From an uncultured Chloroflexia bacterium (lineage in GTDB: Bacteria; Chloroflexota; Limnocylindria; Limnocylindrales; CSP1-4), in assembly GCA_963722105.1 (NCBI GenBank), contig CAVRKQ010000001.1, positions 13,686 to 77,685 of the forward strand: a stretch of DNA of 64,000 nucleotides, given 5' to 3'. The position numbers and the translations under genes are program-made. Below are positions 7,362 to 28,190 of this stretch, in pieces. Below the pieces are notes generated by a model, which was not told the DNA's origin, ran no database searches, and was given only the letters and a program-made list of their open reading frames with translations. Each line of letters starts with the position of its first letter. The stretch's first letter is position 1.

Positions 7362-8881
7362 ATGTCCGATCGAACTGCCGCGAGGTCTGGTTCCTCACCG
7401 GCAGCCAGGGGCTCTACGGCCAGGAGACGCTCGACCAGGTCGCCGCGCAGTCGCAGGAGATCGCCGCCGCGCTCGACGACGTCTCCGGACGCTGCCGGTC
7501 CGCGTCGTGTGGAAGCCGGTGCTGCATCGACGCCGGCGGCGATCCACCGGCAGCATGCTCGACGCCAACGCCGCGCCGGCGTGCGTCGGCGTGATCGCCT
7601 GGATGCACACCTTCTCGCCGGCGAAGATGTGGATCGCCGGCCTCGACGCGCTGCGCAAGCCGCTGCTGCACCTGCACACGCAGGCCGACGTGGAGCTGCC
7701 GTGGTCGCACGATCGACATGGACTTCATGAACCTCAACCAGGCCGCGCACGGCGACCGGGAGTTCGGCTACATCCAGTCCCGGCTCGGGGTGGCCCGCAA
7801 GACCGTGGCCGGCCACGTCGAGCGACCCGCTCGGTCCGGCAGCGGGTCGGCGCGTGGGCGCGGGCGGCGGTCGGGCGCGCCGAGCTGCGCACACCTGCGG
7901 CTGGCCCGGTTCGGCGACAACATGCGCGACGTCGCGGTCACCGAGGGCGACAAGGTCGAGGCCCAGCTGCGGTTCGGCGTCTCGGTCAACACCTACGGCG
8001 TCAACGACCTGGTCGCCGTCGTCGACGCGGTCGCCGACGCCGACATCGACGAGCTGGTCGGCGAGTACGCCGACCTCTACCAGGTCGCCCCCGAGCTGCT
8101 GCCCGGCGGCGACCGGCACGACGTCGCTGCGCTACGGCGCCCGGATCGAGCTGGGCCTGCGGCACGTTCCTCGACGACGGCGGCTTCGGCGCCTTCACCA
8201 CGAACTTCGAGGACCTCGGCGGGCTGCGCCAGCTCCCCGGCCTGGCCGTGCAGCGGCTGATGGCCGACGGCTACGGCTTCGGCGGCGAGGGCGACTGGAA
8301 GACCTCGGTGCTGCTGCGCACGATGAAGGTGATGGCCGGCGGGCTGCCCGGCGGCACGTCGCTTCATGGAGGACTACACCTACCACCTGGTGCCGGGCGA
8401 GGAGAAGATCCTCGGCGCGCACATGCTCGAGGTCTGCCCGACGCATCACGCGCAGGCAGCCCTCGCTCGAGATCCACCCGCTGGGCATCGGCGGCCGGGA
8501 GGACCCGGTCCGGCTGCGCTTCACGCCGACCCCGGGCCCGGCGTGGTCGCCGGGCTGTCCGACCTGGGCGACCGGTTCCGGCTGACCGTCAACGAGATCG
8601 ACGTGGTCGAGCCCGACGAGCCGACCTGCCGAAGCTGCCGGTGGCCTGCGCGGTCTGGAAGCCGCGACCCGTCCTGGCGCACCTCGGCCGAGGCCTGGCT
8701 GATGGCCGGCGGCCCGCACCACACGGTGCTCTCCACCGCGGTCGGCGTCGAGGTGCTCGAGGACTTCGCCGAGATGACTCGCGTCGAGCTGCTCGTCATC
8801 GACGCCGACACCACGCCGCGCGGCTTCCAGCGCGAGCTCCGCTGGAACGCGGCCTACTACCGGCTGGCGGCCCGCTTGTAG
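7362..8881 (+). CDS. araA: L-arabinose isomerase, frameshifted
   Basis: [86 protein letters not shown]. Confidence 0.95.
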
Positions 8882-13061: not shown

Positions 13062-13081
13062 CCCCACTGAGCTACGGGCCC
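13051..13081 (-). pseudogene. Truncated tRNA gene (5' acceptor strand and D-arm only)
   Basis: Minus strand GGGCCCG-TA-GCTC-AGTGG-GGCTAGC-AGGGGG; GCCCGTAGCTCAGTGG is identical to the tRNA at 45028; TGG-TAGCGT extended -10 lies 7 nt upstream; no anticodon loop or T-arm. Confidence 0.65.
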
Positions 13082-13159
13082 GGCGGCGACGCTACCACGT
13101 TGCGATCGGGCGCCCGTCGGCCCGACCGGAGTCGGGCGGCAGGTGCGTTCCCCGGCGTC

Positions 13160-14302
13160 CTAGCGATAGGGGATGAACTGCGCCCCCTGCTCCGACCTCG
13201 CGAGGTCGCGAAGGATCACGAGGATGCCTTCCTTGCCGATGATGAAGCTATCGCTGACCAGCTTCGCGGTGTCGACGATCCCGATGGGCGCCCACGTCAA
13301 GCCGTCCAGCGACGCCTGCATGGGCCCTGGTCCGGCGAAGCTGAAGTCGTCGGAGGTGCGATCCCAGGCGACGACCCTAGTGCCGTCGGAGGCGAAGACC
13401 TCCATGACGCTCCGGTCCTCCTGGACGAGGGTCCATGAGCGCCCATCCCCAGACTGCCAATAGCCGTGCTGCGTGACCTCGAACCCGCAACCCGACGGCA
13501 TCCCTGACGCGAAGAGCCCGTCCGCCAGCGGGTAGGCAACATACAGTTCGGCCCCCTTGTCGACCGGTGCTGCCTGCCATGTGATCGCGTCCGCCGACCA
13601 CCACGCCCGCGCCGGCTCGAAGTCGCTGACGGTGCAATCGTCGCCGGTCCCGCTCGACCCGACCGCGACATACCCGTCCGGCGCACGGACGATGTCTCGG
13701 ATGGTTCCCCCTCCGAACGCCGCGGCCTTGGCCTGCCGCCACTCGATCGCGTCCTGCGAGACGAGAACCTGCGGGGCATCCGCGCCGTTGGTCCCCCAGG
13801 CAACGAAACCGCTCGGGTCTGCCGCGATGCCCGACACCATCAGCGCCTGCAGGTCCGGATCGAGCGGCACGATGCGCTCCCATTCGCGCCCATCGCTCGA
13901 GCGCCAGATGAGCGGAGAGCCAGCGTCATCATCGTGATCCGTTCGGCCGTTCCCGAACGCGACGAAGATTTCGCCATTAGTAACCACTTCGCTGACGAGG
14001 GCCAGGTCGAACCCGCCGTCCGGCGACGTCGCCAGCTCCCCGGTTCGGGTGCCGTCAGGCGACGTCCAGATGACCGCCGACGCGAGAGCGCCAGGCGCGC
14101 CGATCCGCTCGCCACCGACGATAAACAAGGAACCGACGGCGAGCCCCGCGAAGAGCCGCGTGGAGCCGGGACCGCCAAAGACGCCGCCAACGATCGGATC
14201 GCGTCCATCGGCGAGCTCGAACGGTCGAGGCGACGGGGCAAGGCTCTCGCACCCTGTGAAGACCATCGCCACGACGACCGCAAGGCACCATCGGCGAGCC
14301 AT
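13160..14302 (-). CDS. Putative lipoprotein with repeated Asp-box/BNR-like SxDGxxW motifs (beta-propeller)
   Basis: MARRWCLAVVVAMVFTG-C lipobox-like; WTSPDG, WRSSDGREW, VSQDAIEW, WSADAITW, WQSGDGRSW, ASLDGLTW; TAGCGT 7 nt before ATG. Confidence 0.7.
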   Translation of the reverse strand: MARRWCLAVVVAMVFTGCESLAPSPRPFELADGRDPIVGGVFGGPGSTRLFAGLAVGSLFIVGGERIGAPGALASAVIWTSPDGTRTGELATSPDGGFDLALVSEVVTNGEIFVAFGNGRTDHDDDAGSPLIWRSSDGREWERIVPLDPDLQALMVSGIAADPSGFVAWGTNGADAPQVLVSQDAIEWRQAKAAAFGGGTIRDIVRAPDGYVAVGSSGTGDDCTVSDFEPARAWWSADAITWQAAPVDKGAELYVAYPLADGLFASGMPSGCGFEVTQHGYWQSGDGRSWTLVQEDRSVMEVFASDGTRVVAWDRTSDDFSFAGPGPMQASLDGLTWAPIGIVDTAKLVSDSFIIGKEGILVILRDLARSEQGAQFIPYR

Positions 14303-14417
14303 GGCCCAAACGCTAGCGCCGAGGATCGGGCGCGCGATCGCCTGTTTCCCGCGCGGCGGCCGGGGGTGCACCGGTGCAGGAGGCTCGATCGAACCGAGCC
14401 GCGCACCGATCAACGCG

Positions 14418-14896
14418 TCAGCCGGCGGCCTTCTTCACCAGCTCGGCGATGAGCTTCTCGCCGGCGGGGGTCAGCTTCTCCAGCGCCCACGACGTCGGCC
14501 ACATCTCGCCGTCGTCGAGGGCGGCCTGCTCCTCGAAGCCGAAGGTCGGTAGCGCCCGTTGAACTTGGACGCGGCCTTGAAGAAGCAGACGACCTTGCCG
14601 CCCTTGGTGTAAGCGGGCATCCCGTACCAGGTTCGTGAAGCGAGCCCCGGAGCGCTCGACTTCACGATCGCGTGGATCCGCTCGGCAAGCACGCGATCCG
14701 GTCCCGGCATCTCCTTGATCTTCGCGAGAACGTCCGCCTCGCCCTCCGCCGCCGCGTCGGCGGCCGCGGCGCTCCGCCGCTTGGCGGTCTTCAGCTCCTT
14801 GGCGTGCTCCTTCATCGCGTCGATCTCGTCATCCGTCCACTTGCCGGACGCGTCGTTGAGGTCGATCTGGGTGCTCGTCGCGGTCTTCGTTGCCAT
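14418..14896 (-). CDS. DUF1801/YdhG-like protein, one frameshift near 14545
   Basis: [25 protein letters not shown], continuing in another frame as [27 protein letters not shown]. Confidence 0.8.
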
Positions 14897-15028
14897 CGGA
14901 AGGTTCTCCCCTGGGTCGATTTCTTGACTGGTTCGATCCCATCGTAGGCACGCATCGCCCCAGTGGCTTCTCCGAAACTGCTCGAATTCGGGTGCGGTAG
15001 CGCTTGCGTGCCGGACTAGGATCGCGAC

Positions 15029-15315
15029 GTGGCGACGAGGCTTCCGCGCGCGATGTGGGCCGTGCTCTTCGCGGCGTACGCGATCCTGGCGACGGGCCTT
15101 TTCGTCGTTGGTCGAACGCAGGTCCGCCGTCCATCGCCGGGTCCGGGACCGCCCCCGACATCCAGCAGCGGTGCTACGAGAGCTGGCTCCAGACCCGCGG
15201 GCTCGGGCTCCAGCTGCTCAATTCGCCAATCCCCGCGGTCGCGCTCCTGGTCGCGCTCGTGGCGATCACGGCCTGGATTACCCGCGTTCGAATCGGGACC
15301 GCGCCTCAGCCATAG
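15029..15315 (+). CDS. Small hypothetical membrane protein, probable frameshift near 15125
   Basis: TAGGAT 6 nt before GTG; two hydrophobic segments in two frames ([20 protein letters not shown]; [17 protein letters not shown]). Confidence 0.45.
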
Positions 15316-16289
15316 ACCTCGGGGTTGACCGGCGTCGGGAGGCGGTCGCCGCGGATGCCGGCGAGCAGGTTCGCCGCGGCCATCGAGGCCATCTTGCCGC
15401 GGGTCGCGCGCGAGGCCGAGGCGATGTGCGGCACGACGAGGCAGTTGTCGAGGCCGACGAGCGGATGGTCGACCGGCAGCGGCTCGGGGTCGGTGACGTC
15501 GAGCGCGGCCGCGGCGATGGTGCCGTCCCGCAGGGCGTCGACGAGCGCCATCGAATCGACGACCGGGCCACGCGACGTGTTCACGAGCACGGCGGTCGGC
15601 TTCATCCAGCCGAGGCGCTCGGCGTTGATGAGGCCCTTCGTCTCGGGGCTGAGGACCGTGTGCAGCGAGACGAAGTCCGACTCGGCCAGCAGCCCCTCGA
15701 GGGTCATGTAGGTGGCGTCGAACTCCGCCTCGACGGACTTCGGCACGCGCTGGAGGTCGTGGTAGACGATCCGCATCCCGAAGCCCTTCGCGCGCCTCGC
15801 CACCGCCTGCCCGATCCGCCCGAACCCGACGATCCCGATCGTCGCGCCATGGACGTCCGGGCCCATCAGGAGCATCGGTCCCCAGGTCTTCCACTTGCCG
15901 TCGCGGACATACCGGTCGCCCTCCACGAGCCGCCGCGCGGCGGCCATCAGGAGCGCCCAGGCGAGGTCCGCGGTCGTCTCCGTGAGGACGCCCGGCGTGT
16001 TGCCGACGGGGAGCTTCCTGCGCGTGCAGGCAGGGACATCGATGTTGTCGAACCCGACCGCGAAGTTCGAGACGACCTTCAGCTGCGGGCCGGCCGCATC
16101 AAGGAGCTCGTCGTCGACCCGATCGGTGAGGAGGGTCAGGATCCCCTCGCAGCCCTGGACGGCGCGGAGGAGGTCGTCGCGCGGAGGCGGCAGGTCGCCC
16201 TCCCAGACCGTCGCGTCGGTGGCCTCGCGGACGCGCGCGAGACCCTCCTCCGGGATGATGCGCGAGACGAAGACCTTCGGCTTGGCCAT
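15306..16289 (-). CDS. D-2-hydroxyacid dehydrogenase (glyoxylate/hydroxypyruvate reductase-like)
   Basis: [54 protein letters not shown]. Confidence 0.93.
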
Positions 16290-16309
16290 GTCGTCGCGCG
16301 ACCGCCGGG

Positions 16310-17491
16310 TCAGGCGGGCGTCGCGGCGCCGGACGCCACGAACGAGCGGATGCGGCGCAGGGCCTCGGTGAGATTCTCGCGGGAGTTGGCGTACGAGATC
16401 CGGATGTGGTTGCCACCGACCCCGCCGAAGGCCGTGCCCGCGAGCACGCAGACGCCGGCCTCGTAGAGCAGCTTGTCGGCGAGCTCCGCGCCCGTCATGC
16501 CCGTCTCGGAGATGTCCGGGAAGACGTAGAACGCGCCCTGCGGCCGGAGGCAGTCGAAGCCCGGGATCTCGTTCAGCCCGTCGACGATGAGGTCCCGGCG
16601 CGCGCGGAACTCCGCGACCATCGCGTCGACCTCGTCCTGCGGCCCGCGCAGCGCCTCGATCGCGCCGGCCTGGGCGAACGCCGTCACCCCGGAGATCGTG
16701 TTGATGATCAGCTGACCGTACGCCTTGACCAGCCAGTCGGGCACCACCGCGTAGCCCATCCGCCAGCCGGTCATCGCGTAGGTCTTCGAGAAGCCGTCGA
16801 GGGTGATCGTCCGGTCGGCCATGCCGTCGAGCGAGGCGATCGAGACGTGCTCCGCGCCGTCGTACAGGATCCGCGCGTAGATCTCGTCGGACAGCACGAC
16901 GAGGTCGTGGCGCTGCGCGAGCTCGGCGATCCGCTCGATGTCGCTCCGGGTCAGGACGCCGCCCGTCGGGTTCGCCGGCGAGTTGAGCAGAGCAGCTTCG
17001 TCCGCGGCGTGATCAGGGAGGCCAGCTCGTCGACGTCGAGCCGGAAGTCGTTCGCCTGGCGGATCGGGATCGGGACGGGCGTGCCGCCGACGAAGCGGGT
17101 GATCGACTCGTAGATCGGGTAGCCCGGGTCCGGCACGATCACCTCGTCGCCGGGGTCGACCAGGGCCATGATCGCGTAGACCATCACGCCCTTGCCGCCG
17201 ACGGTCACGAAGACGTTCTCCGGCTTGACGGCGAACCCGCGCCGGGCCGTCGTGTCGTCGGCGATCGCCGCGCGCAGGTCGGGCAGGCCCGGCGTAGGGC
17301 GGGTAGTGGGTCAGGCCCTCGTCGAGGGCCTTCTTGGCCGCCTCGCGGACGTTCGCCGGGGTGTCGAAGTCGGGCTCGCCGATCTGGAGGTAGACGATGT
17401 CCTTGCCGGTGGCTGCGAGCGCCCGCGCGCGGGCGGAGACCTCGAAGGCGGTTTCCGTGCCGATCGAATCCATCCGGGCGGCCGTTTTCAT
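16310..17491 (-). CDS. Class I/II PLP-dependent aminotransferase (aspartate aminotransferase-like), two compensating indels
   Basis: [55 protein letters not shown]. Confidence 0.92.
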
Positions 17492-17523
17492 GGCCTACAG
17501 CATAGGGTCGCCTAAAATGGCGG

Positions 17524-17967
17524 GTGACGCGCTACTACGCGATCGACGAGGCCAACGCCGCCGTGCCCGAGGTCGAGCGAATCCTCGCCGCGCTGCGCGA
17601 CCAGCGGGAGGAGCTGATCGCGCTCCGCGACCGCGTGGTCGCCGCCTCCCCGCCGGACGACGAGACACCGACGCCCGGCGCCGCCGAGAAGGTCCGACTG
17701 CTGCGCCTCGGGATGCAGGGCCTCATCGACCAGATGCAGGCGGGCGTGGCCCGCCTGGTCGAGATGGACATCACGCTGCGCGACATCTCGTCGGGGCTGA
17801 TCGACTTCCCGGCGCTGTTCAGCGGCCGCCCGATCTGGCTGTGCTGGCGGCTGGGCGAGGGGGCGGTCGAGCACTGGCATCCGCACGACGAGGGCTTCGA
17901 CACTCGCCGCCCGCTGGGCGAGCTCCCCACCGGCCTCGGCCGCGGCTCCGGCACGCCCGCGGCCTGA
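17524..17967 (+). CDS. DUF2203-like protein
   Basis: YAIDEANAAVP..LRDISSGLIDFP..IWLCWRLGE..HWH..EGFDTRRP. Confidence 0.8.
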   Translation: MTRYYAIDEANAAVPEVERILAALRDQREELIALRDRVVAASPPDDETPTPGAAEKVRLLRLGMQGLIDQMQAGVARLVEMDITLRDISSGLIDFPALFSGRPIWLCWRLGEGAVEHWHPHDEGFDTRRPLGELPTGLGRGSGTPAA

Positions 17968-18178
17968 CCGGCCCCGGGCCGTGGCCGCGCTCGCGGCCCG
18001 CACGCAAGGGCCGGCGGCCAATCTCCATCCAATGTTCGATGGGACCGGCGAGCACCCTCGATGGTCGCTCCTCGGTCCCGTCGAACGTGGCATGCACGGC
18101 AGGACCGGCAAAGGCGTCGATCGGCAGCTGTCCGGGCTCTACGAGGGCGCGATCGAACGTGCCGTGCACGATTCACCG

Positions 18179-18599
18179 ATGAGTGAGCCCAAATCCAGGT
18201 GGGGTCCGCGAGGACGATCCTCCAGGGCGGGCGCGCGAAGGCCTACCGACCGATCCCGGCTGCGAAGCGGCAGGCGGCCCTCGCGCGGGGCTCGACGCCT
18301 ACGACCGCGGCGACTGGTTCCTCGCCCACGAGCTGCTCGAGCCGGCGTGGATGGGGACGGAGGACCTCGCCGAGCGCGAGCTGCTCCAGGGACTGATCAA
18401 GCTGGCCGCGGCGTTCGTCCACGGCGCCCGATCGAATCCCGCGGGCGTGGCCAAGAACCTCCGCGGCGCGCGGGACCGGCTCGTCGCGGGTCGGGCCGCC
18501 GGCGCGAAGCTGGGCGTCGACGCGGAGGAGCTGATCGAGCGCGTGGATGGGTGGCTTGCGGCGCCGGGCGGCCCGGCGATCGAGATCCCGCGGCGTTAG
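18179..18599 (+). CDS. DUF309-like protein, frameshifted N-terminus
   Basis: GLDAYDRGDWFLAHELLEPAW..LQGLIKLAAAFVH. Confidence 0.8.
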
Positions 18600-18894
18600 A
18601 CCCTGCGCTGCACGCCGTATGTGCAAATTCGAGGCGAGGCCGACCGCCAGGGCAATCCAACGACCTACCGAAGGGATCCTGCACGCCTATCGCGTGCTCG
18701 GGTCGCGCCTCACGAGCTCGACCTGCCGGCACTGCGGCGGCGCCGAGGTGCTCGGAGGACGCTTGAGGCCATCTTTGTGCCGGAAATGATCATGGGGCGT
18801 GCAGCCCGAGCGCCAAGGGCAGCAATGGGGCGATGGGGCCGGAAATCGGGCGCCGCACGACCGCGGGCACCACGCGGTGCCCCAAGAAGAGGAG

Positions 18895-19045
18895 GGCTAG
18901 GCCGGAGGCGGCGCCGGCGAGAAGCCGGCTAGGCCGGAGGCGGCGCCTGCGAGAAGCCGGCTAGGCCGGAGGCGGCGCCGGCGAGAGCCGGCTAGGCGAG
19001 GCGGAGGCGGCGCCGGCGAGAAGCCGGCTAGGCCGGAGGCGGGGC
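18895..19045. repeat. Tandem repeat, about 4.5 copies of 32-nt GGCTAGGCCGGAGGCGGCGCCGGCGAGAAGCC
   Basis: Units start at 18895, 18927, 18959, 18990 and 19026 (partial); no spacers; last copy contains the Kelch gene stop. Confidence 0.95.
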
Positions 19046-20582
19046 CTGCGCTTCCTTGCGTGCCTTGCGGCGCTCCCACCAGCCGCGGATCAATTCCTTG
19101 TGGTTGAACGCCCAGCCGATCGCGACGAGGACCACGAAGTTGCCCGTGCCGACGCCCGCGGCGGCCAGGTAGCCGAGCTGCTGGCCGATCTCCCCGCCGA
19201 TCTGGAGCGCCGGGCACGACCACGCCGACGAGGCCGAGCCGGAAGAACGGCTCCTCGGGCGCGAGGCTGGCCCGGTACGACGTCGCGAGCGCGCCGGATC
19301 CCGCGTCTCCACCGAGGAGGAAGACGGTCGAGCCGCTGACCACGACCGCCGCGTTCTCCGAGCCCTTGCGGGAGGTCGGTCGCGTCGAGGTGGTGCCACC
19401 CGCCGGGCAGGTCGCCCGTCGCGTCCGGGAGGGCCCAGTAGAGCTCGCGCTTCGGCGACGTGCCGTCCGAGCCGCCGACGAGGTAGAGGGCGCCATTGGC
19501 CGCGAACCCGGCGCCGCGGTGCGCGCCCCGGGGAGGTTGAGCGCGTCGCTGACCGTCCACTTGACGACGCCCTGGGGCGCCTCGCCGCTCGCGGCGGGCG
19601 GGGTGCGGCCGGCGAGGGTGCCGCGCTCGTACCGGGCGCCGGGCTGCCCGTCGCGCGGAAGCGCGCCGTAGTCGGCGCGCTGGACCGCCACCGACCGCGC
19701 CGTTGGCGTCGGAGCCGCCGTAGACCCAGAGGAACGTGCCCTCGAGCGCGATGTCCGCGTCGGCGACCGGGAACGCGAGGGCGGGCTGCTCCTTGAACTC
19801 CTGAGGAAGCCCGCGTCGTCGAGGGTCGACTTCCACACGGTGGAGGTCGGCTGGCCGTCGGGTCCGCGCCCGCCGGCGACGATGATCCCGTCGGTCACCG
19901 CGACCACCGCCGCACCGGAGCGAGGCTCGGGCAGCGTGACGTGGCCGCGTCTTCGCCATCCCCGTCCTCGAGCTCGGCCCAGGTCCCGAGCGCGCTCGTG
20001 TCCGGGTCGAGCCCGATGAACCAGACGGTGTCGGTCGGGGCGCCGTCGGGGCCGAGGCCGCCGACCAGGTAGGCCGTGCCGCTGAGCGTCGTGATCCCGG
20101 CGTCGGCGCGGCCCTCGGGCAGCGCCGGGCCCTCGGCCCACGCGCCGAGGGTGCCCGACGTCGATCGTGGCCACGTAGGTCGTCGCGGACGGAGCGGCGC
20201 CGTCGGTGCTGTCCGTCCCGCCGATGTAGAGCAGGTTCTTGCCGAGCTGGGCGGCGGCGCCGTTCGTCCGCGGCTGCGGCAGGGACACCTCGGTCGGCGA
20301 CGCCTGCCACGGGACGACGCCGCCGACCGGGACCGGGCAGGGCATCGCCGTGCCGTTCTCCGGCGGGCAGAGGTTGACCGGCGACCAGCCGAGGATCCCG
20401 AGATCGATCGTCCGCGAGACGACGAAGTAGTAGGCGCGGTCCGGGACGTAGCCGAGGGCCATGATGATCACGAGCAGCCAGAAGAAGGCCTTCGTGAACG
20501 CCCAGCCCCAGCCCTCGCTGTCGAACAGCCCGAACAGCGAGCGGCGATGGACCGGTCGACCTGCGGGCAGCGCCTTGGCCAT
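19028..20582 (-). CDS. Membrane-anchored Kelch-repeat protein, several frameshifts
   Basis: N- and C-terminal TM segments; Kelch-like units LPQPR..LLYIGG, AYLVGG, LPEPR..IIVAGG, LWVYGG, LYLVGG, VFLLGG with W spacers; starts 2 nt after the cyt c stop. Confidence 0.75.
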
Positions 20583-20584
20583 CG

Positions 20585-21649
20585 CTACTTGACCGTCAGC
20601 GTGCCGGTCATCGCCGGGATCGGGTGGACCGAGCAGATGAACGTGTACGTCCCCGGCTCCAGGGCCGTGAACTGGTAGTTGGCCTCGGCCGGCGCGGTGA
20701 TCGGGGTCTGATCCTGCAGCGGTGGCGTCGTCGCCGGATCCGATCGGATGTCGACGTCGTGGGACTGGCCGTCGTCGGTGTTGTTGAAGTGGATGACGAA
20801 GGGCGTGTCGGCGTCGACCGTCAGCTCGGTCTTGTCGAAGGCGAGGACGCCGCCGGTCCCGAGCTCGAGGACGGGCGCGCTCGGGTCAATCGAAGCGGGC
20901 GGCGCGGGCGTCCCGGCGGGGCCGCTGTGGCAGTCCGGTACGGGCGTCGCGCTCGGCTCGGGCTTGAACTCTGTGTCGCGCCAGCCCTTGAACGTCTCGA
21001 CGTTGCCGTCGGCATCGAGGACCGGCTCGTTCAGCTCCGGGTCGCGCTTCTGGTACTCCTGCGTGGAGGGCGCGCGGATGAACGCGATCAGGTCCTCGAT
21101 CTGGACATAGTTCAGCGGGCCGCCGTTCTCCTCGGCCCAGACAGGCATGAGGCTCTTGGGGTTGCCGCAGACGTACCGGCCGCCGGCGACGAGGACGTTG
21201 TGGATGTACTGCTCGTTGAGGTGCTGGAAGAGCTTCATCTGGTCGTTCAGGACCGGGCCGACGCCGCCCTCGCCGTTGACCCCGTGGCAGCGCGCGCAGT
21301 TGGCCTGGTAGAGGTTGTAGCCGCGCTCGACGGCGGTCACCTGCTGGAGCTCGTCCTGGGCCTCCAGGCGAGGCTTGCTGAGGTCGAGGGGCAGGCCCAG
21401 CTCGTAGAAGTAGTAGATGATCACGAACAGGGCGACGACGACGAGCCCGAGGAACGCCACCCACCGCGCGTCACCCGACTGGCGGACGATCTTGGCGGCG
21501 CGCTCCGAGGTCAGGCCTGCGATGGCCCGGGTCTGGCGGGGCGCGGTGAAGCGCTCAACAGGGCGAGTGGGAACCTCCCCTTCCGGTCGGCGCGCGGGGA
21601 GCGGCCGCTCCGGCCGGCCGCCGGGCCGGTCGCCTGGTTGGTCGGTCAT
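20585..21649 (-). CDS. Membrane-anchored monoheme cytochrome c fused to a C-terminal cupredoxin
   Basis: TM helix, CARCH, distal LMP Met; type-1 Cu ligands HDVDI..YTFICSVHPIPAM; ATG 21649 overlaps the Rieske TGA. Confidence 0.88.
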   Translation of the reverse strand: MTDQPGDRPGGRPERPLPARRPEGEVPTRPVERFTAPRQTRAIAGLTSERAAKIVRQSGDARWVAFLGLVVVALFVIIYYFYELGLPLDLSKPRLEAQDELQQVTAVERGYNLYQANCARCHGVNGEGGVGPVLNDQMKLFQHLNEQYIHNVLVAGGRYVCGNPKSLMPVWAEENGGPLNYVQIEDLIAFIRAPSTQEYQKRDPELNEPVLDADGNVETFKGWRDTEFKPEPSATPVPDCHSGPAGTPAPPASIDPSAPVLELGTGGVLAFDKTELTVDADTPFVIHFNNTDDGQSHDVDIRSDPATTPPLQDQTPITAPAEANYQFTALEPGTYTFICSVHPIPAMTGTLTVK

Positions 21650-22321
21650 ATGCAGCCGACAGGGCTCTTCGGGGGGATGATCCCGGGCTGGCCGACCGCC
21701 ACCGGGAGCGGGCCGAGGGTGATCTGCGACGTATCGATCGTCAGCTTCCCGTCGGCCGCGACCTTGATCGCGAAGCGGTCCATGCTCCGCGGCGCAGGGC
21801 CGTACTGGGCGCCCTGGGCCTTGATCCCGAGCCGGTCGTAGCGCGATCCGTGGCAGGGGCACTCCAGCCAGTAGTTCTTGAGGCACGGGTTCGGCTTGCA
21901 GCCGAGGTGCGGGCAGCGCTGGTACAGCGCGCGCACGTTCAGCGCGGTCCCGTCGCCCTCGGTGTCCTCGCCCGGGACGAACTCCTGGCGGGACGGTATC
22001 GACCAGCACGACGTACGCGCGGGCCTGCTGGTAGTAGGCGGGGAAACCACTGGCAAACGGGATCGACGTGTTCTGGGCCTTGATGTCGTCGATCGTCCCG
22101 ATCTCGATCTCGCTGCCGAAGCCGCCCTTCTGGTTCGGCCACAGGAAGCCGATGGAGCCGAAGGTCACCTCCGTGATCCAGAGGAGGGCCGCGCCGCCGA
22201 TGGAGCGGCGGAGGAGCGTCCTGCGCGAGATCCCCTGGACCGGGTCCTGGCGCAGCGAGCGCAGGGCCTGCGGCGTCAGGGCCTGGGGCTTGTCGGCGGG
22301 CGCGAGGTGGTAGTTGCTCAT
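21646..22321 (-). CDS. petC: Rieske [2Fe-2S] protein of Rieske/cytochrome b complex, one frameshift near 21995
   Basis: Tat-like SRRTLL plus TM helix; CPHLGC and CPCHGSRY. Confidence 0.9.
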
Positions 22322-22340
22322 CGGTCGATCACAGGCTGCA

Positions 22341-22967
22341 TCACAGGGCGAAGTGGAGGCCGTTGGTGAAGTTGTCGAAGAACGGCAGGTATGGCGTCAC
22401 CAGGGAGTACCCGGGTCCGCGGAAGAACACGGCCACGAAGGTGACCATGAGGCCGAGGCCGCACAGGAGCGTGAACAGCAGCACGGCGGTCTTGCGCTCG
22501 GCGGGGCGCCTCGCCTCGGGGTTCGAGCGGTCGATGTACGGCAGGACCATCGCGCCGACGAGGATGTACAGGAACGGCACGAGCACGCCGGAGATCACCG
22601 GGTGGAAGTAGGCCAGCAGCTCCTGGAGCCCCAGCAGGTACCACGGCGCCTTCGCCACCGGCGGGGTCACGTTGCCGTTCGCCAGCTCCTCGAGCGGCGC
22701 ATTGATGAACAGCCCCATGAGCAGCAGGAAGATGCTCATGACGATCGCCGCGAGGAACTCGATCGACAGGAGGTGCGGCCAGGTCATGACCGTGTCGTCG
22801 GGCTCCTTCTGGACCCGGACGACGGCGTCCTGCTTGACCATCGCGAGCAGCCGGTACGGCCGCGCGGACATCGGGACGCGCTGCTTGTCGATCTCCGTCC
22901 GCCGCGTCGGATCGACGGGCAGGACGACGCGCGACTCCAGCTTCTCGTCGGTCGGTCGGTCAGCCAT
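22341..22967 (-). CDS. petD: Cytochrome b6f subunit IV-like protein (C-terminal half of a split cytochrome b)
   Basis: TWPHLLSIE, APLEELAN..TP..AKAPWYLLGLQELL, LPYIDR; three TM helices. Confidence 0.82.
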   Translation of the reverse strand: MADRPTDEKLESRVVLPVDPTRRTEIDKQRVPMSARPYRLLAMVKQDAVVRVQKEPDDTVMTWPHLLSIEFLAAIVMSIFLLLMGLFINAPLEELANGNVTPPVAKAPWYLLGLQELLAYFHPVISGVLVPFLYILVGAMVLPYIDRSNPEARRPAERKTAVLLFTLLCGLGLMVTFVAVFFRGPGYSLVTPYLPFFDNFTNGLHFAL

Positions 22968-22970
22968 GGC

Positions 22971-23699
22971 TCACAGGGGTCCCGAGATCCCGCCATCCTT
23001 CCTGATCCGCCAGAAATGGACGGCCAGGAAGATCGCGGTCACGAGCGGGAGCAGCATGATGTGGAGCACGTAGAAGCGGAGCAGCGTGTTCTGCCCAACT
23101 TCGAAGCCGCCGAAGATCAGCGCCTGGATCGGGGTGTTGATCACGGGCGTGTAGCTGGCCATGTTCAGGCCGATCGTGATGGCCCAGTAGCTGATCTGGT
23201 CCCACGGCAGCAGGTAGCCGGTGAACGACAGGGCGATCGTCATCAGCAGGAGGATCACGCCGACGACCCAGTTGAACTCGCGCGGCGGCTTGTAGGCCCC
23301 GTGGTAGAAGACCCGCATCATGTGGAGGAAGACGAAAAAGACCATCAGGTGGGCGCCCCACCGATGGACGTTCCGCGTCAGCAGGCCGAACGCCACGCTC
23401 GCCTGGATGTTCAGGATGTCCGTGTAGGCGTTCGTGGTCGACGGGATGTAGAAGAACATCAGGTACACGCCCGTCACGGTCAGGACGAGGAACAGGAAGA
23501 ACGACAGCCCGCCGAGGCAGAAGGTGTAGGCGAACTTGACGGCGTGCTGCCGGACCCGCACCGGGTGGAGGTGCAGGAAGACGTTGTTCATGACCGCGTA
23601 CGCGCGCGAGCGCTCGTCCGTCGGGTAGGGGTTCCGGAACAGCGACCGCCAGGCGGAACTCCGGCGGATGGCCTGGTCCACCCGCTCCAGGAAGCTCAA
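22971..23699 (-). CDS. petB: Cytochrome b6-like protein (N-terminal four-helix half)
   Basis: YTFCLGGLSF, TGVYLMFFYIP, RNVHRWGAHLM..LHMMRVFYHGAYKPPREFNW, FTGYLLPWDQ, RFYVLHI..AVHF..IRKDG.ISGPL; AGGAGG then TTG 23699 overlapping the upstream TGA. Confidence 0.92.
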   Translation of the reverse strand: MSFLERVDQAIRRSSAWRSLFRNPYPTDERSRAYAVMNNVFLHLHPVRVRQHAVKFAYTFCLGGLSFFLFLVLTVTGVYLMFFYIPSTTNAYTDILNIQASVAFGLLTRNVHRWGAHLMVFFVFLHMMRVFYHGAYKPPREFNWVVGVILLLMTIALSFTGYLLPWDQISYWAITIGLNMASYTPVINTPIQALIFGGFEVGQNTLLRFYVLHIMLLPLVTAIFLAVHFWRIRKDGGISGPL

Positions 23700-25534
23700 C
23701 GGGCCATTCCTCCTGCGACGCCGGTCGTCCCGGCCAGCTGCGCGTCGCGGTACGACTCCTTGTAGAGCCGCCCGTCGGTCGAGATCTCCTGCAGCTCGAA
23801 CCGCTCCATCGTAATGGCGTCGAACGGGCAACGCTTGACGCACAGCGCGCAGCGGATGCAGCGCTCCTCGTCGAGGATCATCGCGGCCCCGTCCTGCCAG
23901 CCGTAGGCCTCGTCGAGCTCCGTGAGGAGGCCCTCGGACTTCAGCTGGTTGACGTCGACCATGTGGATGACGCCCTCGGGGCAGACATCCGCGCAAGCGC
24001 CGCAGAGGACGCAGCGGAACGGGTCGAACCAGATGTTGTAGTTGCACATCAGGCAGCGGGTCGACTCGGCGACCGCGCCCGTCGCGTCGTAGCCCTGCTC
24101 GACCTGGGTCGTGAAGTTGACGTCAGGATCCGTCGACGGCATCCGGTCCACGAGCGGCGTCATCGGGATGTGCTGGCGCGGCAGGACGTCGTAGAACTCC
24201 GGCATCTCGAAGGTCCACGAGCTCGTCATCTTGACGTTCGCCGCGACGGTCACATCGGTGCGGCCGGCGAGGTACCGATCGATGGCGTAGGCGCACTTCT
24301 TGCCGTGGCCGGCGGCCTCGATGAGGGTCGTGGGACCGGTCACGAAGTCGCCGCAGGCGAAGACGCCCCGGACGTTCGTCGCGTACGTCGCCGGATCGAC
24401 CTTGACGCGGCCGCGGTTGACCTCGAAGTCCGCCTCGACCGGCAGGAACGTCAGGTCCGCGGCCTGCGACACCGCCGGGATCACGGTGTCGGCCTTGATG
24501 ACGAACTCCGAGCCGGGGATCGGCACGGGCGAGCGGCGGCCGGAGGCGTCCGGCTCGCCGAGCTTGTTGCGGATGAACTTCACGCCGGTGACGTGGCCGT
24601 TCTCGCCGAGGACCTCGATCGGGCTGGCGAGGAACTCCATCCGAACGCCCTCGCGCTCGGTCTCGCCGAGCTCCTCCTCGTCCACGACCAGCTCGGAGCG
24701 CGTCCGGCGGTAGACGATCGCGACGTTCTCGGCGCCGTGGCGAAGGGACGTCCGCGAGCAGTCCATCGCGGTGTAGCCACCGCCGATCACCACGACGTCC
24801 TTGCCGACCTCGATCGGCTCGCCGAGGTTGGCCTTCTTCATGAAGTCGACGCCGTACTGGACGCCCTCGAGCTCCGCGCCCGGCACGTCGAGGGCCACGG
24901 CGTTCATCGCGCCGGCGGTGATCGCGACCGAGTCGTGGGTCCGCTGGAGCTCGTCGAAGGTCAGGTCGACCCCGATGTTGGTGTTGTAGTGGAACGTGAC
25001 CCCGAGGCGCTCGACGAGGCGGATGTCCATCTCGATCGCCTCGCGCGGGAGGCGGAACGCCGGGACGCCGATGAGCATCGTCCCGCCGCCGTACGGCAGC
25101 GAGTCGTAGACGTCGACCCCGTAGCCCTTCATCGCCAGCTCGCGGGCCACGGAGATGCCGGCGGGACCTGCGCCGACGACCGCGACGCTCTCGGCGCGGC
25201 GCTCGATGTGGGGCATGACATCCGGGATGCCAGAGGCCTCGTGCCACTCGACCAGGAAGCGCTTCATCGCGCGGATCGCGAGGGGGCGATCGATGTCGCC
25301 ACGGCGGCAGGCCCGCTCGCACGGCGCCGAGCAAACGTAGGAGCACATCGCGGCCACGGGGTTGGGCTCGCGGGAGAGGATGTAGCCCTCCTCGAACCGA
25401 CCCTCGGCGGCCAGGTTGAGGTAGCCGCGGCAGTTCGTGCCGACCGGGCAGGCCTCCTGGCACTCGATGTTGCACTGGAGCCAGGAAGCGTCGACCGGCT
25501 GGACGAGGAACTCCGGGCGGACGTCGAGGGTCAA
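23696..25534 (-). CDS. GltD/DsrL-like FAD- and Fe-S-containing NAD(P)H oxidoreductase with C-terminal 2x[4Fe-4S] ferredoxin
   Basis: CNIECQEACP, CSYVCSAPCERACRRG, GAGPAG, GGGYTAMD, YRR, GDFVTG, RCLMC, CVLCGACADVCP, CIRCALCVKRCP. Confidence 0.9.
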   Translation of the reverse strand: MTLDVRPEFLVQPVDASWLQCNIECQEACPVGTNCRGYLNLAAEGRFEEGYILSREPNPVAAMCSYVCSAPCERACRRGDIDRPLAIRAMKRFLVEWHEASGIPDVMPHIERRAESVAVVGAGPAGISVARELAMKGYGVDVYDSLPYGGGTMLIGVPAFRLPREAIEMDIRLVERLGVTFHYNTNIGVDLTFDELQRTHDSVAITAGAMNAVALDVPGAELEGVQYGVDFMKKANLGEPIEVGKDVVVIGGGYTAMDCSRTSLRHGAENVAIVYRRTRSELVVDEEELGETEREGVRMEFLASPIEVLGENGHVTGVKFIRNKLGEPDASGRRSPVPIPGSEFVIKADTVIPAVSQAADLTFLPVEADFEVNRGRVKVDPATYATNVRGVFACGDFVTGPTTLIEAAGHGKKCAYAIDRYLAGRTDVTVAANVKMTSSWTFEMPEFYDVLPRQHIPMTPLVDRMPSTDPDVNFTTQVEQGYDATGAVAESTRCLMCNYNIWFDPFRCVLCGACADVCPEGVIHMVDVNQLKSEGLLTELDEAYGWQDGAAMILDEERCIRCALCVKRCPFDAITMERFELQEISTDGRLYKESYRDAQLAGTTGVAGGMAR

Positions 25535-25755
25535 GGCGAGGCTGAACCTCTCTGCGCAGTGCGGACGGTCGACACGAGCGGGGCCGGATCGCCGGATCGG
25601 CCCGCGCGGTCAATCTACCATCCGCACCCCTCGCACGCTCGGCGTTGACCTGCGCGAAGCCCCTCGGGCGATTTGACTCGCGCTGGGCTCGCAGCTACGC
25701 TCGGCCCGGCGACGGCGCCCCGGGAGGCGCTGGACAGCGAGGACCCAAACCCCGC

Positions 25756-26877
25756 GTGACCGTGAGCGAGCTGGCCTTCATGGCCCTCGGGCTCCTCCTC
25801 GGCGCCGCCGGGGGTGCGGCCATCATCGTGTTCTTCGGGACCCGGCTTCCGCGACGCGAGATTCGGGTCACCGTGACCCGCGATGCGCTTCCCCGCCGTT
25901 CGGAAACGCTGTCCCAGGACGCGTTCATGACGACGCCGGGCGCACCCGCTCCGGGCGGTCCCGGCGACCGCCGGACGGCCGACCGCGAGGACGCCGCGAA
26001 CCCTCCGGCCATGCCTGCGACCGCCCCCGCGGCTCCGATCGCGATCCCGATCGCACCGTCGCCAGGCGCCACCCCGCATCCGCCCCCGGATCGAACGATC
26101 GTTCCAATCGGACCGGGCCGATCTCCCTCTCGAGGCTTCCCGCCGAGCCCGCCGCGGCCGCGGGTTTCGACGACGGTCCCGATCGGGCAGGCGACCGCGG
26201 ACGTGGGGCCGGTCGCGAGCCCGACCCCGCAGCCATTCCGGAGCCCGATCGCGAGCCAGATCGCGGTCGAGGAGGACGCCGATCGCGATCTCGAGGGGGC
26301 CCGGCACGGGAGCGCCCGGGGCTCGGCGCTGGAGCGGATGCTCCGGGGCGAGCACCGCGCGATGGCCGAAGTGCTCGACAAGGTCGCGGGGCCGGACAGC
26401 CAGCAGCGGCGCGAGTGGGAGCGCCTGCTCCGCGGGCTGGTCGAGGCCATGGCCGAGAACGCGGTCCGCGAAGCCGTGATCGACTTCCCGATGGGCACCG
26501 CGTTCTGGGACAGCTTCACGATCGAGCAATGCCGCCGCGTCGTGGGCGCACTCGCATCCATGGGCTACGCCTACGACGGCCACGCCGGCTGGGTCGACAG
26601 CCGGACCCCTGCCTACCGCGACCTTTCGACGGCCCTCGCCGACGTCGGCATCGACCCGCGACGGATCCGCGCCTGGCCGAACTCGTCGGACATCGCGGGC
26701 CTGTTCGCTGGCGCGCGGCCAGCGCCCGAGGAGCTGCTCGCGGCCGCGGGGCCGGCCTACGAGATGACCGACGTTCGCGAGCTGGTCGGCGAGCGCGCCG
26801 ACGAGCTGCGGGACCTGTGGCTGGCGTGGGACGCGGTCAAGCCCGCGTTGCTCGACGAACACCTGACGACGGCCTGA
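25756..26877 (+). CDS. Hypothetical protein, N-terminal TM anchor, Pro-rich linker, globular C-domain
   Basis: ELAFMALGLLLGAAGGAAIIVFF; Pro/Ala-rich middle; intact ORF divergent from the oxidoreductase. Confidence 0.7.
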   Translation: MTVSELAFMALGLLLGAAGGAAIIVFFGTRLPRREIRVTVTRDALPRRSETLSQDAFMTTPGAPAPGGPGDRRTADREDAANPPAMPATAPAAPIAIPIAPSPGATPHPPPDRTIVPIGPGRSPSRGFPPSPPRPRVSTTVPIGQATADVGPVASPTPQPFRSPIASQIAVEEDADRDLEGARHGSARGSALERMLRGEHRAMAEVLDKVAGPDSQQRREWERLLRGLVEAMAENAVREAVIDFPMGTAFWDSFTIEQCRRVVGALASMGYAYDGHAGWVDSRTPAYRDLSTALADVGIDPRRIRAWPNSSDIAGLFAGARPAPEELLAAAGPAYEMTDVRELVGERADELRDLWLAWDAVKPALLDEHLTTA

Positions 26878-26883
26878 CCTCGG

Positions 26884-27690
26884 CTAGCTCTCGGTCGTCG
26901 AGCCTTCTTCCGCCGCCTCGCCCGGCTCCGGCGATTCGTCGTCGTCATCGATCACGATGACGTGGAAGCCGTCGGCCGCGGTCACCCCGATCCGCTTCCC
27001 GAGCTCCGCCGACCACTCGCGGGTCCACTTCTCGACCGAGGCGAAGTCCTTCAGCTGGCTCTCGTGGCAGCGGAGCGCGTCGAGCTTGCGCCCGACCGTC
27101 GCCGAGGTGTCGACGAAGGCCGTGGGGTTGTCGGACCAGAAGAGGTAGAGGCGCCGGACCCGGTGCGCGGCCAGCCCACCGCGCGCGAGCCACGGGAAGG
27201 CCATCGGGTTGCGCGACGCCGGGTAGACCGCGTCCACGGCGGCGAAGCCCGAAGCGCGATGGTCGGTGTGGTTCACGCCGCTGTCGCGGTAGAAGAGCGT
27301 CTCGGGGTCGGTGGCCAGGACCGCGTCCGGGCGGAAGGTGCGAATCTCGCGCACGAGGTGCTCGCGGAGGACCAGGTCGTTGACCAGCGCGCCGTCCGGC
27401 ATGTGCAGGAACGTCACGCCCGCGTAGCCGACGACGTCGGCTGCGGCGCGCTGCTCTCGCTCCCGGATCGCCGCGAGCTCGAGGGGGTCCATGTCCGGGT
27501 CCTCGCCGCCCTGGTCGCCGCTCGTGCAGCAGACGAGCCAGCCCTCCGAGCCGTCGTCGATCCAACGCGCGGCGGTCGCGGCCGGCCCGAAGTCGGCGTC
27601 ATCCGGGTGCGCCGCGATCACCATGAATTGCTCCGGTCGCCAGGCGTGCGGCTCCTGGACGGGAGCCCCGGGCAGCGCCTCGTCGGTCAT
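26884..27690 (-). CDS. PIG-L/LmbE-family deacetylase
   Basis: AAHPDDADFG, TSGDQG, IREREQRAAA, HTDHR, CHESQ. Confidence 0.9.
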   Translation of the reverse strand: MTDEALPGAPVQEPHAWRPEQFMVIAAHPDDADFGPAATAARWIDDGSEGWLVCCTSGDQGGEDPDMDPLELAAIREREQRAAADVVGYAGVTFLHMPDGALVNDLVLREHLVREIRTFRPDAVLATDPETLFYRDSGVNHTDHRASGFAAVDAVYPASRNPMAFPWLARGGLAAHRVRRLYLFWSDNPTAFVDTSATVGRKLDALRCHESQLKDFASVEKWTREWSAELGKRIGVTAADGFHVIVIDDDDESPEPGEAAEEGSTTES

Positions 27691-28190
27691 CCCGCCGCGC
27701 GAGCGGCCCGCTCCTCGCCGAGCGCCTCGAGCACCTCGGCCGCGTGCCCGTCGGCCTTGACCTTCGGCCAGGCGCGCGCGACGCGGCCGTCCGGGTCGAT
27801 GAGGAAGGTCGAGCGGATGACGCCCATGTAGGTCTTGCCCAGGGCGGTCTTCTCGCCCCAGGCGCCGTAGCGCTCGATGACCTCGCGCTGCGGATCGGTG
27901 AGGAGCGTGAACGGCAGGTCGAACTTCTCGCGGAAGCGCTGGTGGCTCGCGGCGCTGTCCTTGCTCACGCCCCAGACGTCGGCATCGGTCGCGGCGTACT
28001 CGGCGTCGAGGTCGCGGAACTGGCAGGCCTCGGTGTTGCAGCCGGGGGTGTCGTCCTTGGGGTAGAAGTACAGGACGGTCCAGCGGCCGCGCTGCGTGGC
28101 GAGGTCATGCACCGCACCGGTCTCGTCGGGGAGGACGACGGCCGGTGCGACCTGTCCGACCTCGGGGGCGGTCGGGGTCTCGGCGGTCAT
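27687..28190 (-). CDS. bcp: Peroxiredoxin BCP/PrxQ
   Basis: LYFYPKDDTPGCNTEACQFRD, RSTFLIDPDG. Confidence 0.93.
   Translation of the reverse strand: MTAETPTAPEVGQVAPAVVLPDETGAVHDLATQRGRWTVLYFYPKDDTPGCNTEACQFRDLDAEYAATDADVWGVSKDSAASHQRFREKFDLPFTLLTDPQREVIERYGAWGEKTALGKTYMGVIRSTFLIDPDGRVARAWPKVKADGHAAEVLEALGEERAARAAG

Follow-up and report, generated by a model that had tools for sequence, protein, structure and literature searches.

Introduction

Complexes that combine a short, b6-type cytochrome b with an NAD(P)-binding oxidoreductase have been described before, and they resemble a six-gene operon located in a 64,000-nucleotide stretch of DNA (the window) from an uncultured Chloroflexia bacterium of the family CSP1-4, order Limnocylindrales. 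According to the excerpts available of PMC5600118, cytochromes b of this kind, termed 'subfamily G', are found together with large NAD(P)-binding Fe-S proteins, exist as complexes in Kuenenia (citing de Almeida 2016) and are viewed as descendants of membrane-anchored dehydrogenases. For two anammox complexes with such oxidoreductase subunits, quinol-driven NAD(P)+ reduction by bifurcation has been proposed; their function is unknown, and in AlphaFold 3 (AF3) models His43 of their cytochrome b holds an additional haem b, proposed to lie at the dimer interface (excerpts of PMC12954380). The 'APWY clade', which includes Chloroflexi and Planctomycetes, contains complexes of which none has been characterised, and it has been speculated that they run in reverse (excerpts of PMC4122944). 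All three papers are cited from such excerpts throughout.

The operon of the window encodes an NfnB/GltD-like flavoprotein (called ox below), a cytochrome b6-type subunit, a subunit IV-like protein, a Rieske 2Fe-2S protein, a cytochrome c fused to a cupredoxin and a Kelch-like propeller protein. We propose, with a probability of about 55%, that the products of the six genes form the housekeeping Rieske/cytochrome b complex with which aerobic Limnocylindrales oxidise quinol; this enzyme, of the b6c type with an APWY motif and haem cn, would carry three accessory modules (ox, the copper relay and the Kelch propeller). An initial annotation of the window had announced an undescribed respiratory complex. 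The pairing of an oxidoreductase with a b6-type cytochrome b has in fact been published (PMC5600118, PMC12954380, PMC4122944), but the cupredoxin and the Kelch protein are apparently undescribed in this setting. Literature searches on Limnocylindria cytochromes, on Chloroflexi Rieske, b6 and cupredoxin proteins and on Kelch proteins with Rieske/cytochrome b yielded no account of the six-gene set, although supplements may hold one. The exit through a c-cupredoxin, the Kelch subunit and the role as sole complex III of an aerobe all appear to be undescribed.

A six-gene operon with a fixed gene order

The operon lies entirely on the minus strand and runs from 25534 to 19028 (coordinates are positions in the window, which has a GC content of about 72%). 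It consists of the following genes.

23696 to 25534, minus strand: ox, a 612-amino-acid NfnB/GltD-like flavoprotein (Pfam and PDB matches)
22971 to 23699, minus strand: cytochrome b6-type subunit, 242 amino acids (Pfam PF00033 at 2e-49)
22341 to 22967, minus strand: subunit IV-like protein, 208 amino acids (Pfam PF00032 at 7.7e-5, APWY motif)
21646 to 22321, minus strand: Rieske 2Fe-2S protein, 224 amino acids in relatives (Pfam PF00355; one frameshift in the window)
20585 to 21649, minus strand: cytochrome c-cupredoxin, 354 amino acids (Pfam PF00034/PF13442 and PF13473/PF00127)
19028 to 20582, minus strand: Kelch-like propeller protein, 485-518 amino acids in intact copies (Pfam Kelch families on intact relatives; 8-9 indels in the window)

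The genes are tightly coupled: ox and the cytochrome b gene overlap in a TTGA, gaps of 3 and 19 nucleotides separate cytochrome b from subunit IV and subunit IV from Rieske, the Rieske and cytochrome c genes overlap in an ATGA, and the Kelch gene follows after 2 nucleotides. The coordinates and all five junctions of the initial annotation proved exact, and every one of its domain assignments was borne out by Pfam, including on the intact relatives. All six genes that it listed are present, but in the window the reading frames of the Rieske and Kelch genes are broken.

Related loci were retrieved through the Kelch protein from a species-level genome collection, and the best 80 of 525 loci were compared. 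The order ox, cytochrome b, subunit IV, Rieske, cytochrome c-cupredoxin, Kelch, on one strand, is found in all 46 loci with at least 5.8 kb of upstream sequence and in 10 shorter ones, that is, in 56 of the 56 loci that are sufficiently long, and the predicted co-conservation of ox and Kelch with the core genes is thereby confirmed. The remaining 24 loci end at contig ends and are consistent as far as they extend. A separate set of 20 loci from relatives in both families has the same order as far as the contigs run (16 reach the Kelch gene, four stop earlier). Such an arrangement is far beyond chance. The loci that keep it span two families, with genomes of 2-3 Mb in the window's family CSP1-4 and of about 1.1 Mb (1.0-1.4 Mb) in the other, taken here to be the Limnocylindraceae. 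The most constant junction is the four-nucleotide overlap of ox and cytochrome b, which was seen in 67 of 72 loci with heuristically picked start codons. The Chloroflexota host suggested earlier agrees with the names of the retrieved loci, 74 of 80 being assigned to Chloroflexota or its subgroups (22 of these to Limnocylindria or Limnocylindrales); the other six bear other phylum names and all come from one series of metagenome-assembled genomes, where mislabelling is suspected.

The cytochrome b6, subunit IV and Rieske proteins

The cytochrome b ranks b6 chains first among its PDB matches (4.9e-53), before the cytochrome b of bc1 complexes (8e-32) and actinobacterial QcrB (about 1e-24). It is of the four-helix type, with two His pairs (H112/H126 and H213/H228) that are invariant in the alignment, and subunit IV is encoded by a separate gene. 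The haem cn motif is present in the window as C61-L-G-G, and C-x-G-G recurs in 72 of 72 distinct cytochrome b sequences, which supports the earlier description of a b6-like cytochrome b of the heme-ci type; attachment of a haem cn/ci to this subunit is predicted from the motif. The protein also has an N-terminal extension with an invariant H43-x-H45-P, and again all 72 distinct sequences contain H-x-H-P. Four cytochrome b paralogues that are not linked to ox (in genomes G005 and G330) are long or fused and have neither CxGG nor H-x-H-P nor APWY.

Subunit IV carries the Qo motif APWY in 81 of 81 distinct sequences; counted by eye, the 208-residue translation has about three hydrophobic stretches. 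The Rieske protein contains the motifs CPHLGC and CPCHGSRYD as well as a twin-arginine signal. Among 86 distinct Rieske sequences, CPHLGC is found in 84, a CPCHGS-type motif in 79, the complete CPCHGSRYD in 76 and the twin-arginine signal in 85. A second Rieske gene is located outside the window (L153, positions 131000-131632 of contig C1 in the window's genome, G000); its product is 60% identical to the operon Rieske over 213 residues, and tblastn of that genome revealed no cytochrome b beside it.

The cytochrome c-cupredoxin

In the product of the fifth gene, a Pro/Ala-rich linker connects a membrane-anchored class-I monohaem cytochrome c to a type-1 copper cupredoxin at the C-terminus. One CxxCH is present in 85 of 88 distinct sequences and two in the other three. 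The copper ligands are arranged as His...Cys-x2-His-x4-Met, with a plastocyanin ligand spacing; Cys-x2-His-x2-5-Met and the upstream His are each conserved in 82 of 84 sequences. Auracyanin A (2aan) is the best PDB match of the cupredoxin (5.9e-6), and plastocyanins are matched as well. The operon contains no further cytochrome c gene.

The flavoprotein ox

The ox protein has an N-terminal Fer4_20 domain (PF14691 at 7e-16), an FAD/NAD(P)H domain (Pyr_redox_2, PF07992 at 9e-29) that contains YRR, and a C-terminal domain in which the 4Fe-4S ferredoxin motif C-x2-C-x2-C-x3-C-P occurs twice; its translation contains no membrane segment. YRR is a mark of NADPH preference and is found in 62 of 63 distinct sequences, as are both ferredoxin motifs. 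The PDB matches are 9n5u_A 'NfnA' (2.5e-104), 4ylf_B (NfnB, 6e-88) and GltD (5e-70). An ox paralogue with 33% identity over about 560 residues is encoded elsewhere in the genome (C2:76753-78711), just downstream of a NuoF match (C2:75001-75516) in the complex I region.

For the homologues of ox in other Chloroflexota families, a shared membrane partner was considered and discarded: 15 of 20 loci lack a cytochrome b, and the neighbours scanned were Fpg, PolA, GH3 and amidohydrolase genes. In one genome of another family (G394), ox and cytochrome b form a pair without Rieske or subunit IV, followed by unrelated genes. This pair fits the origin from membrane-anchored dehydrogenases put forward in PMC5600118.

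The Kelch protein

An AlphaFold2 model of the Kelch protein (pLDDT 75.9 overall, about 90 for the propeller) predicts a helix at residues 25-45, six blades and C-terminal helices. Foldseek matched the model at about 1e-17 to Kelch domains, among them those of KLHL12, NS1-BP and KEAP1, with target-normalised TM-scores of 0.75-0.83; all matches are protein-binding Kelch domains. PDRAYYF and a Cys pair are conserved in the alignment. The alignment has no invariant His, so a galactose-oxidase-like metal site is not evident, and no catalytic signature was seen in the propeller. Since basic residues precede the first helix and follow the last one, the sequence suggests that both ends are cytoplasmic and that the propeller is located outside. 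Most probably it is a subunit of the outer face with a structural or docking role.

The only cytochrome b and cytochrome c found beside an aa3-type oxidase in four genomes

In family searches of four genomes (G000, G017, G025 and G028), the operon cytochrome b was the only match to PF00033, the operon cytochrome c was the only match to PF13442, and one COX1 was found. In the window's genome, the oxidase operon (about 703.7-708.5 kb on contig C6) comprises genes for CtaG, for a COX2 whose C-terminal part is a blue-copper domain, for COX1 and COX3 and for a CtaF-like protein (PF12270) that is likewise fused to a cupredoxin. The genes for the COX2 and CtaF-like fusions lie at 3773-4891 and 7439-8542 of locus L151 (G000:C6:700000-712000). 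The COX2-cupredoxin fusion is full-length in G017 and in one genome of the sister family f3; it is missing from two Limnocylindraceae COX2 genes, and the two genomes concerned have separate cupredoxin genes. CtaG and a thioredoxin-like gene flank the oxidase operon of the window's genome.

Because the operon holds the sole cytochrome b and cytochrome c and the oxidase carries fused cupredoxins, we read the complex as the housekeeping link from quinol to oxidase, in which copper domains would take the place of a soluble cytochrome c. An exit through a haem c-to-copper relay, as proposed in the initial annotation, is plausible in view of the conserved copper ligands (82 of 84), the single PF13442 match in the four genomes and the cupredoxins on the oxidase.

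The quinone was approached through its biosynthesis genes. MenB was above the cut-off in none of five genomes (G000, G017, G025, G028 and G330), and a search for MqnA/D (PF02621) in five genomes gave a single match of 36 residues. Of 25 genomes from the order, nine had a MenA above the cut-off, and none of these nine belongs to the window's genus or to the Limnocylindraceae. The PntB gene of the window's genome is located at C1:77891-79267 and starts about 200 nucleotides past the end of the window. A replacement of the transhydrogenase by ox was also considered and is ruled out, PntB being present in five of five genomes.

Distribution and joint loss with the oxidase

A match to the cytochrome b was found in 39 of 41 related genomes; the two genomes without a match are 62% and 88% complete. 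The wider distribution was followed in a phylum sample of 401 genomes and a class sample of 151 genomes, which include six unpublished ones; these six enter no claim beyond the tallies of the two samples. In the phylum sample, 16 of the 23 genomes from the window's family and all four Limnocylindraceae contain a close ox orthologue (81-95% identity). The seven genomes of the window's family without a close ox belong to the genera g6 and g7 (best E about 1e-90), and five genomes of these genera that are 93-95% complete (G190, G208, G217, G226 and G275) also have no cytochrome b orthologue, no COX1 and no Kelch gene. These five genomes probably represent lineages that do not respire aerobically, in a family that is otherwise aerobic.

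In the class sample, strong Kelch matches were obtained for 31 of 44 genomes of the window's family, for six of six Limnocylindraceae and for none of 11 g6 and g7 genomes. The sister families gave weak partial matches only (3 of 50 genomes in f3 and 5 of 49 in f4). Four loci from these sister families were inspected; all four contain ox, cytochrome b, subunit IV, Rieske and cytochrome c, the last with two CxxCH in three of them, and none contains a cupredoxin or a Kelch gene. By this phyletic pattern, the core of ox and b6c genes is at least class-wide, and the copper fusion and the Kelch gene are additions of the order to which CSP1-4 and the Limnocylindraceae belong.

Proposed mechanism and alternatives

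In the mechanism that we propose, quinol would be oxidised at the Qo site, and one electron would leave by way of the Rieske protein, the single haem c and then the tethered blue-copper domain, arriving at the aa3-type oxidase with its own fused cupredoxin domains. The second electron would cross the b haems and reach haem cn and the Qi site. The ox protein, an NfnB/GltD-like NADPH-FAD protein with four Fe-S cluster motifs, would reside on the cytoplasmic side, where it would bind to the N-terminal extension of cytochrome b and pass electrons to or from haem cn. The Kelch propeller, anchored by helices at both of its ends, would sit on the outer face and probably provide a scaffold or a platform for docking.

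That ox is a subunit of this complex is, in our view, rather likely, because the coupling of the genes, their co-occurrence and co-loss, the features of the ox-linked cytochromes b and the precedent of the anammox complexes all point to it. We are more tentative about the function of ox and put slightly less than even odds on the idea that it feeds electrons from NAD(P)H into the haem cn/Qi side, which would make it a built-in NAD(P)H:quinone reductase. This direction is favoured since it is downhill, since it fits a two-gene ox-cytochrome b module without a Qo site and since the same flavoprotein module runs in the NAD(P)H-input direction in GltS and dihydropyrimidine dehydrogenase (DPD). A complex prediction with ox residues 420-612 and two cytochromes b scored 0.01 (mark 0.32), a value classed as no answer, and counts neither way; its design, with a fragment and without cofactors or subunit IV, may have been unsuitable.

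Several points weigh against the reading as a housekeeping complex with a docked flavoprotein. NuoD, NuoF and PntB are each present in five of five genomes and offer ordinary routes for NADH oxidation and NADPH supply, so there is no evident need for ox. At 15 of 20 loci from other Chloroflexota families, a homologue of ox with 41-45% identity stands by itself among unrelated genes, and the ox family is therefore not intrinsically membrane-linked. The searches for MenB, MqnA/D and MenA do not settle the type of quinone, and redox arguments on the direction of electron flow are thus impossible. The binding of ox and the Kelch protein to the complex, as well as the path and direction of the electrons, is deduced from gene sequences. 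No sequencing run with the operon sequence was found, at most 0.08 of the sampled words being present in nine runs. In addition, a truncated second copy of part of the locus on contig C6 (see below) is left without explanation, and a reverse function has been proposed for the uncharacterised APWY clade (PMC4122944).

An unlikely alternative, albeit one with a published model, is an anammox-style bifurcation, in which quinol oxidation at the Qo site would send one electron through the cytochrome c and the copper domain to the oxidase and the other to NADP+ by way of the b haems, haem cn and the Fe-S chain. Such an enzyme would generate NADPH in an O2-driven manner. A like architecture of modules prompted the same proposal for Kuste4569-74 and Kustd1480-85 (PMC12954380). 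The CPCHGSRYD motif, present in 76 of the 86 Rieske sequences, contains the Ser and Tyr that raise the potential of other Rieske proteins, and H43 of the cytochrome b is invariant and may recall the His43 that holds the extra haem b in the AF3 models, a likeness by number only (both PMC12954380). However, the step from haem bH/cn to the Fe-S clusters and FAD would be uphill for the electrons, with the quinone at the Qi site competing for them; PntB is present in five of five genomes as a source of NADPH; and as the sole complex III the enzyme must sustain a Q cycle. An argument from energetic asymmetry is inapplicable as long as the quinone type is not given.

It might also be that ox is co-transcribed without being a subunit. 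It would then be a soluble NADPH-dependent Fe-S flavoprotein, and the Kelch protein would either act in assembly or be a membrane protein of no relation to the complex. The lack of a membrane segment in ox and the stand-alone homologues at 41-45% identity would be consistent with this, but we regard it as distinctly improbable. The overlap with the cytochrome b gene is kept in 67 of 72 loci, ox and the other genes strictly co-occur and are lost together, they are kept in genomes of about 1.1 Mb, and the features that are restricted to ox-linked cytochromes b would be hard to account for. Furthermore, complexome evidence exists for the anammox counterpart (cited in PMC5600118).

Very improbable is a reverse operation, in which proton-motive force would drive electrons from a high-potential donor through copper and haem c to quinone or NAD(P)+. 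It has the proposal for the APWY clade in its favour; against it, the complex co-occurs and is co-lost with the haem-copper oxidase, streamlined aerobic genomes have it as their sole complex III, and no lithotrophic donor system is known here, although no search for one was made.

Frameshifts and a second copy

Two further features of the window bear on the broken reading frames.

1 to 22000, no strand: error-dense assembly stretch (GC3-phase Viterbi and density of phase segments along contig C1)
13064 to 21137, no strand: 8.1-kb block present twice in the assembly (blastn and tblastn of the same genome)

The Rieske gene has one frame-breaking indel near 21990-22000 and is intact in relatives, for example in loci L032 and L072. 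The Kelch gene has eight frame-breaking indels of 1-2 nucleotides compared with five intact relatives, and nine compared with an intact second copy in the same assembly. A codon-phase Viterbi analysis switched phase every 60-500 nucleotides over positions 1 to about 22000, whereas the segments from 22321 to 64000 are of gene length. Positions 1-22000 correspond to about 10-36 kb of contig C1, and the bins covering 10-40 kb of this contig contain 22-29 phase segments per 10 kb compared with about 10 elsewhere. An aminotransferase gene at 16310-17491 is broken by the same stretch.

The second copy is part of a block at C6:730300-738389 of the window's genome that is 96.9% identical to positions 13064-21137. 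It contains an intact Kelch gene of 518 codons for amino acids and a cytochrome c-cupredoxin gene that is truncated at its 5' end and reduced to codons 161-354. Apart from nine short indels, the two Kelch copies differ by 8, 4 and 48 substitutions at codon positions 1, 2 and 3, a pattern which indicates that the copies have genuinely diverged under purifying selection and that C1 carries noise from indels on top. Since the indels cluster in the error-dense stretch and the Kelch copies differ mostly at third positions, the frameshifts in the window are assembly errors and not gene decay. A decay of the locus, with the Rieske and Kelch genes as pseudogenes, was considered in view of the one and the eight to nine frame-breaking indels and rejected as highly implausible, for the phase switches are equally dense over about 22 kb and strike many unrelated genes, the codon-position GC bias is intact within each fragment, the differences between the Kelch copies indicate purifying selection, and the genome has no other cytochrome b.

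The block on C6 may stem from a duplication, from a co-binned strain or from a misjoin. Past the second copy, C6 continues with an 8.6-kb tail that showed no codon periodicity, no Rfam match and no match among the retrieved sequences. Short direct repeats follow just past the Kelch stop (window about 18895-19050; blastn self-matches of 93-121 nucleotides at about 91% identity) and are also present in the C6 copy.

The region upstream of ox

One element upstream of the operon is conserved among the relatives.

25612 to 25620, minus strand: conserved TGGTAGATT element, extended -10-like, about 86 nucleotides upstream of the ox start

The pattern TGnTA[AG]ATT occurs at the matching position, 73-103 nucleotides upstream of ox, in 53 of 61 distinct upstream regions of relatives, compared with a background of 0.02 per kb in the retrieved loci overall. 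In many of these regions a TTGC-type hexamer precedes it by about 17 nucleotides; the upstream sequence differs in the Limnocylindraceae. The initial annotation had placed a single extended -10 at about 25620-25612. TGGTAGATT is indeed found there and its position is conserved, but a consensus promoter scan of 18500-26200 returned no site; it returned one chance-level terminator-like site, inside the cytochrome b gene. From the conserved position we infer that the TGGTAGATT element works as a promoter and that the operon is transcribed from it as one unit.

A short GCCGG...CCGGC hairpin of five pairs, with little covariation, lies a few bases after TGGTAGATT (window 25535-25610 and the leaders of relatives), and many relatives have a T-rich stretch after it. 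Farther upstream, both families have a gene for a Bcp-type peroxiredoxin (window 26884-28190; loci L032 and L047), and CSP1-4 adds an LmbE/PIG-L-like gene.

Implications

NAD(P)-linked Rieske/cytochrome b complexes have so far been discussed mainly for anammox bacteria, which have an exotic metabolism and in which their function is unknown. Here, the same core would be the only complex III of abundant aerobic soil and freshwater bacteria, where it is kept at a genome size of about 1.1 Mb and lost together with the oxidase. The role of the flavoprotein can thus be asked about in a simpler setting with one oxidase, one cytochrome c and no competing bc complex. A role as sole complex III also argues against a specialisation of the APWY complexes for reverse flow. 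The fusion of copper domains to the bc complex as well as to the oxidase suggests that respiration here dispenses with cytochrome c shuttles, and the Kelch protein would be a new kind of accessory protein for Rieske/cytochrome b enzymes. In its fullest form, our proposal is a copper-wired and Kelch-scaffolded b6c-aa3 respiration whose sole complex III exchanges electrons directly with NADP(H) through an ox docked at haem cn. All of these parts together are doubtful. If true, this would be a complex III that doubles as an NADPH dehydrogenase or, run the other way, as an O2-driven NADP+ reductase by bifurcation at the Qo site.

Comparison with known systems

The anammox complexes Kuste4569-4574 and Kustd1480-1485 of Kuenenia stuttgartiensis, compared here by description only, share with the operon a b6-like four-helix cytochrome b, a subunit IV-like protein, a Rieske protein and an Fe-S NAD(P) oxidoreductase (PMC12954380). 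They differ from it in their hexa- or octahaem cytochromes c, one complex also having an HAO-like subunit, whereas the operon encodes one CxxCH and a blue-copper domain. Their subunit IV is described with five helices, compared with about three hydrophobic stretches counted by eye here, and the Kelch subunit as well as the aerobic host with an aa3 oxidase are additions on the side of the operon (all anammox features as given in PMC12954380). 'Subfamily G' (Dibrova et al. 2013/2017) and the 'APWY clade' (Kao and Hunte 2014) are likened to the operon by motifs and neighbour gene: a short CxGG cytochrome b, APWY and an Fe-S NAD(P) neighbour are common to them. In the excerpts of PMC5600118 and PMC4122944, supplementary trees and tables aside, neither a cupredoxin fusion nor a Kelch protein nor Limnocylindria is mentioned.

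The closest solved relative of the cytochrome b is found in the cytochrome b6f complex of cyanobacteria and chloroplasts, which has the split into b6 and subunit IV, the haem cn motif and the plastocyanin-type copper exit in common with the operon. Unlike b6f, the operon encodes no cytochrome f; a monohaem class-I-like cytochrome c is fused to the copper domain, APWY stands in place of PEWY, and the Kelch protein is an extra subunit. The association of FNR with b6f is a loose analogy to ox, which is an NfnB/GltD-like flavoprotein and not an FNR.

A tethered carrier that makes a soluble cytochrome c dispensable is known from the actinobacterial bcc-aa3 supercomplex, with its dihaem QcrC, and from SoxM of Sulfolobus, with the blue-copper protein sulfocyanin. 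The likeness of these supercomplexes to the system described here lies in this tether, and a CtaF-type subunit IV (PF12270) is encoded in the oxidase operon here. In contrast to both, the tether on the bc side combines haem c and cupredoxin, and further cupredoxins are fused to COX2 and to the CtaF-like protein. Auracyanin of Chloroflexus, from the same phylum and the best PDB match of the copper domain, is the electron acceptor of alternative complex III and a separate protein there, whereas the copper domain is fused to the cytochrome c subunit here.

The flavoprotein itself has the Fer4_20 and FAD/NADPH domains in common with NfnB, GltD and the N-terminal module of dihydropyrimidine dehydrogenase, with E-values of 1e-70 to 1e-108. 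Compared with this module, ox has an additional C-terminal domain with two 4Fe-4S motifs and a conserved tail, and compared with NfnB and GltD its gene overlaps that of a cytochrome b instead of adjoining NfnA or GltB.

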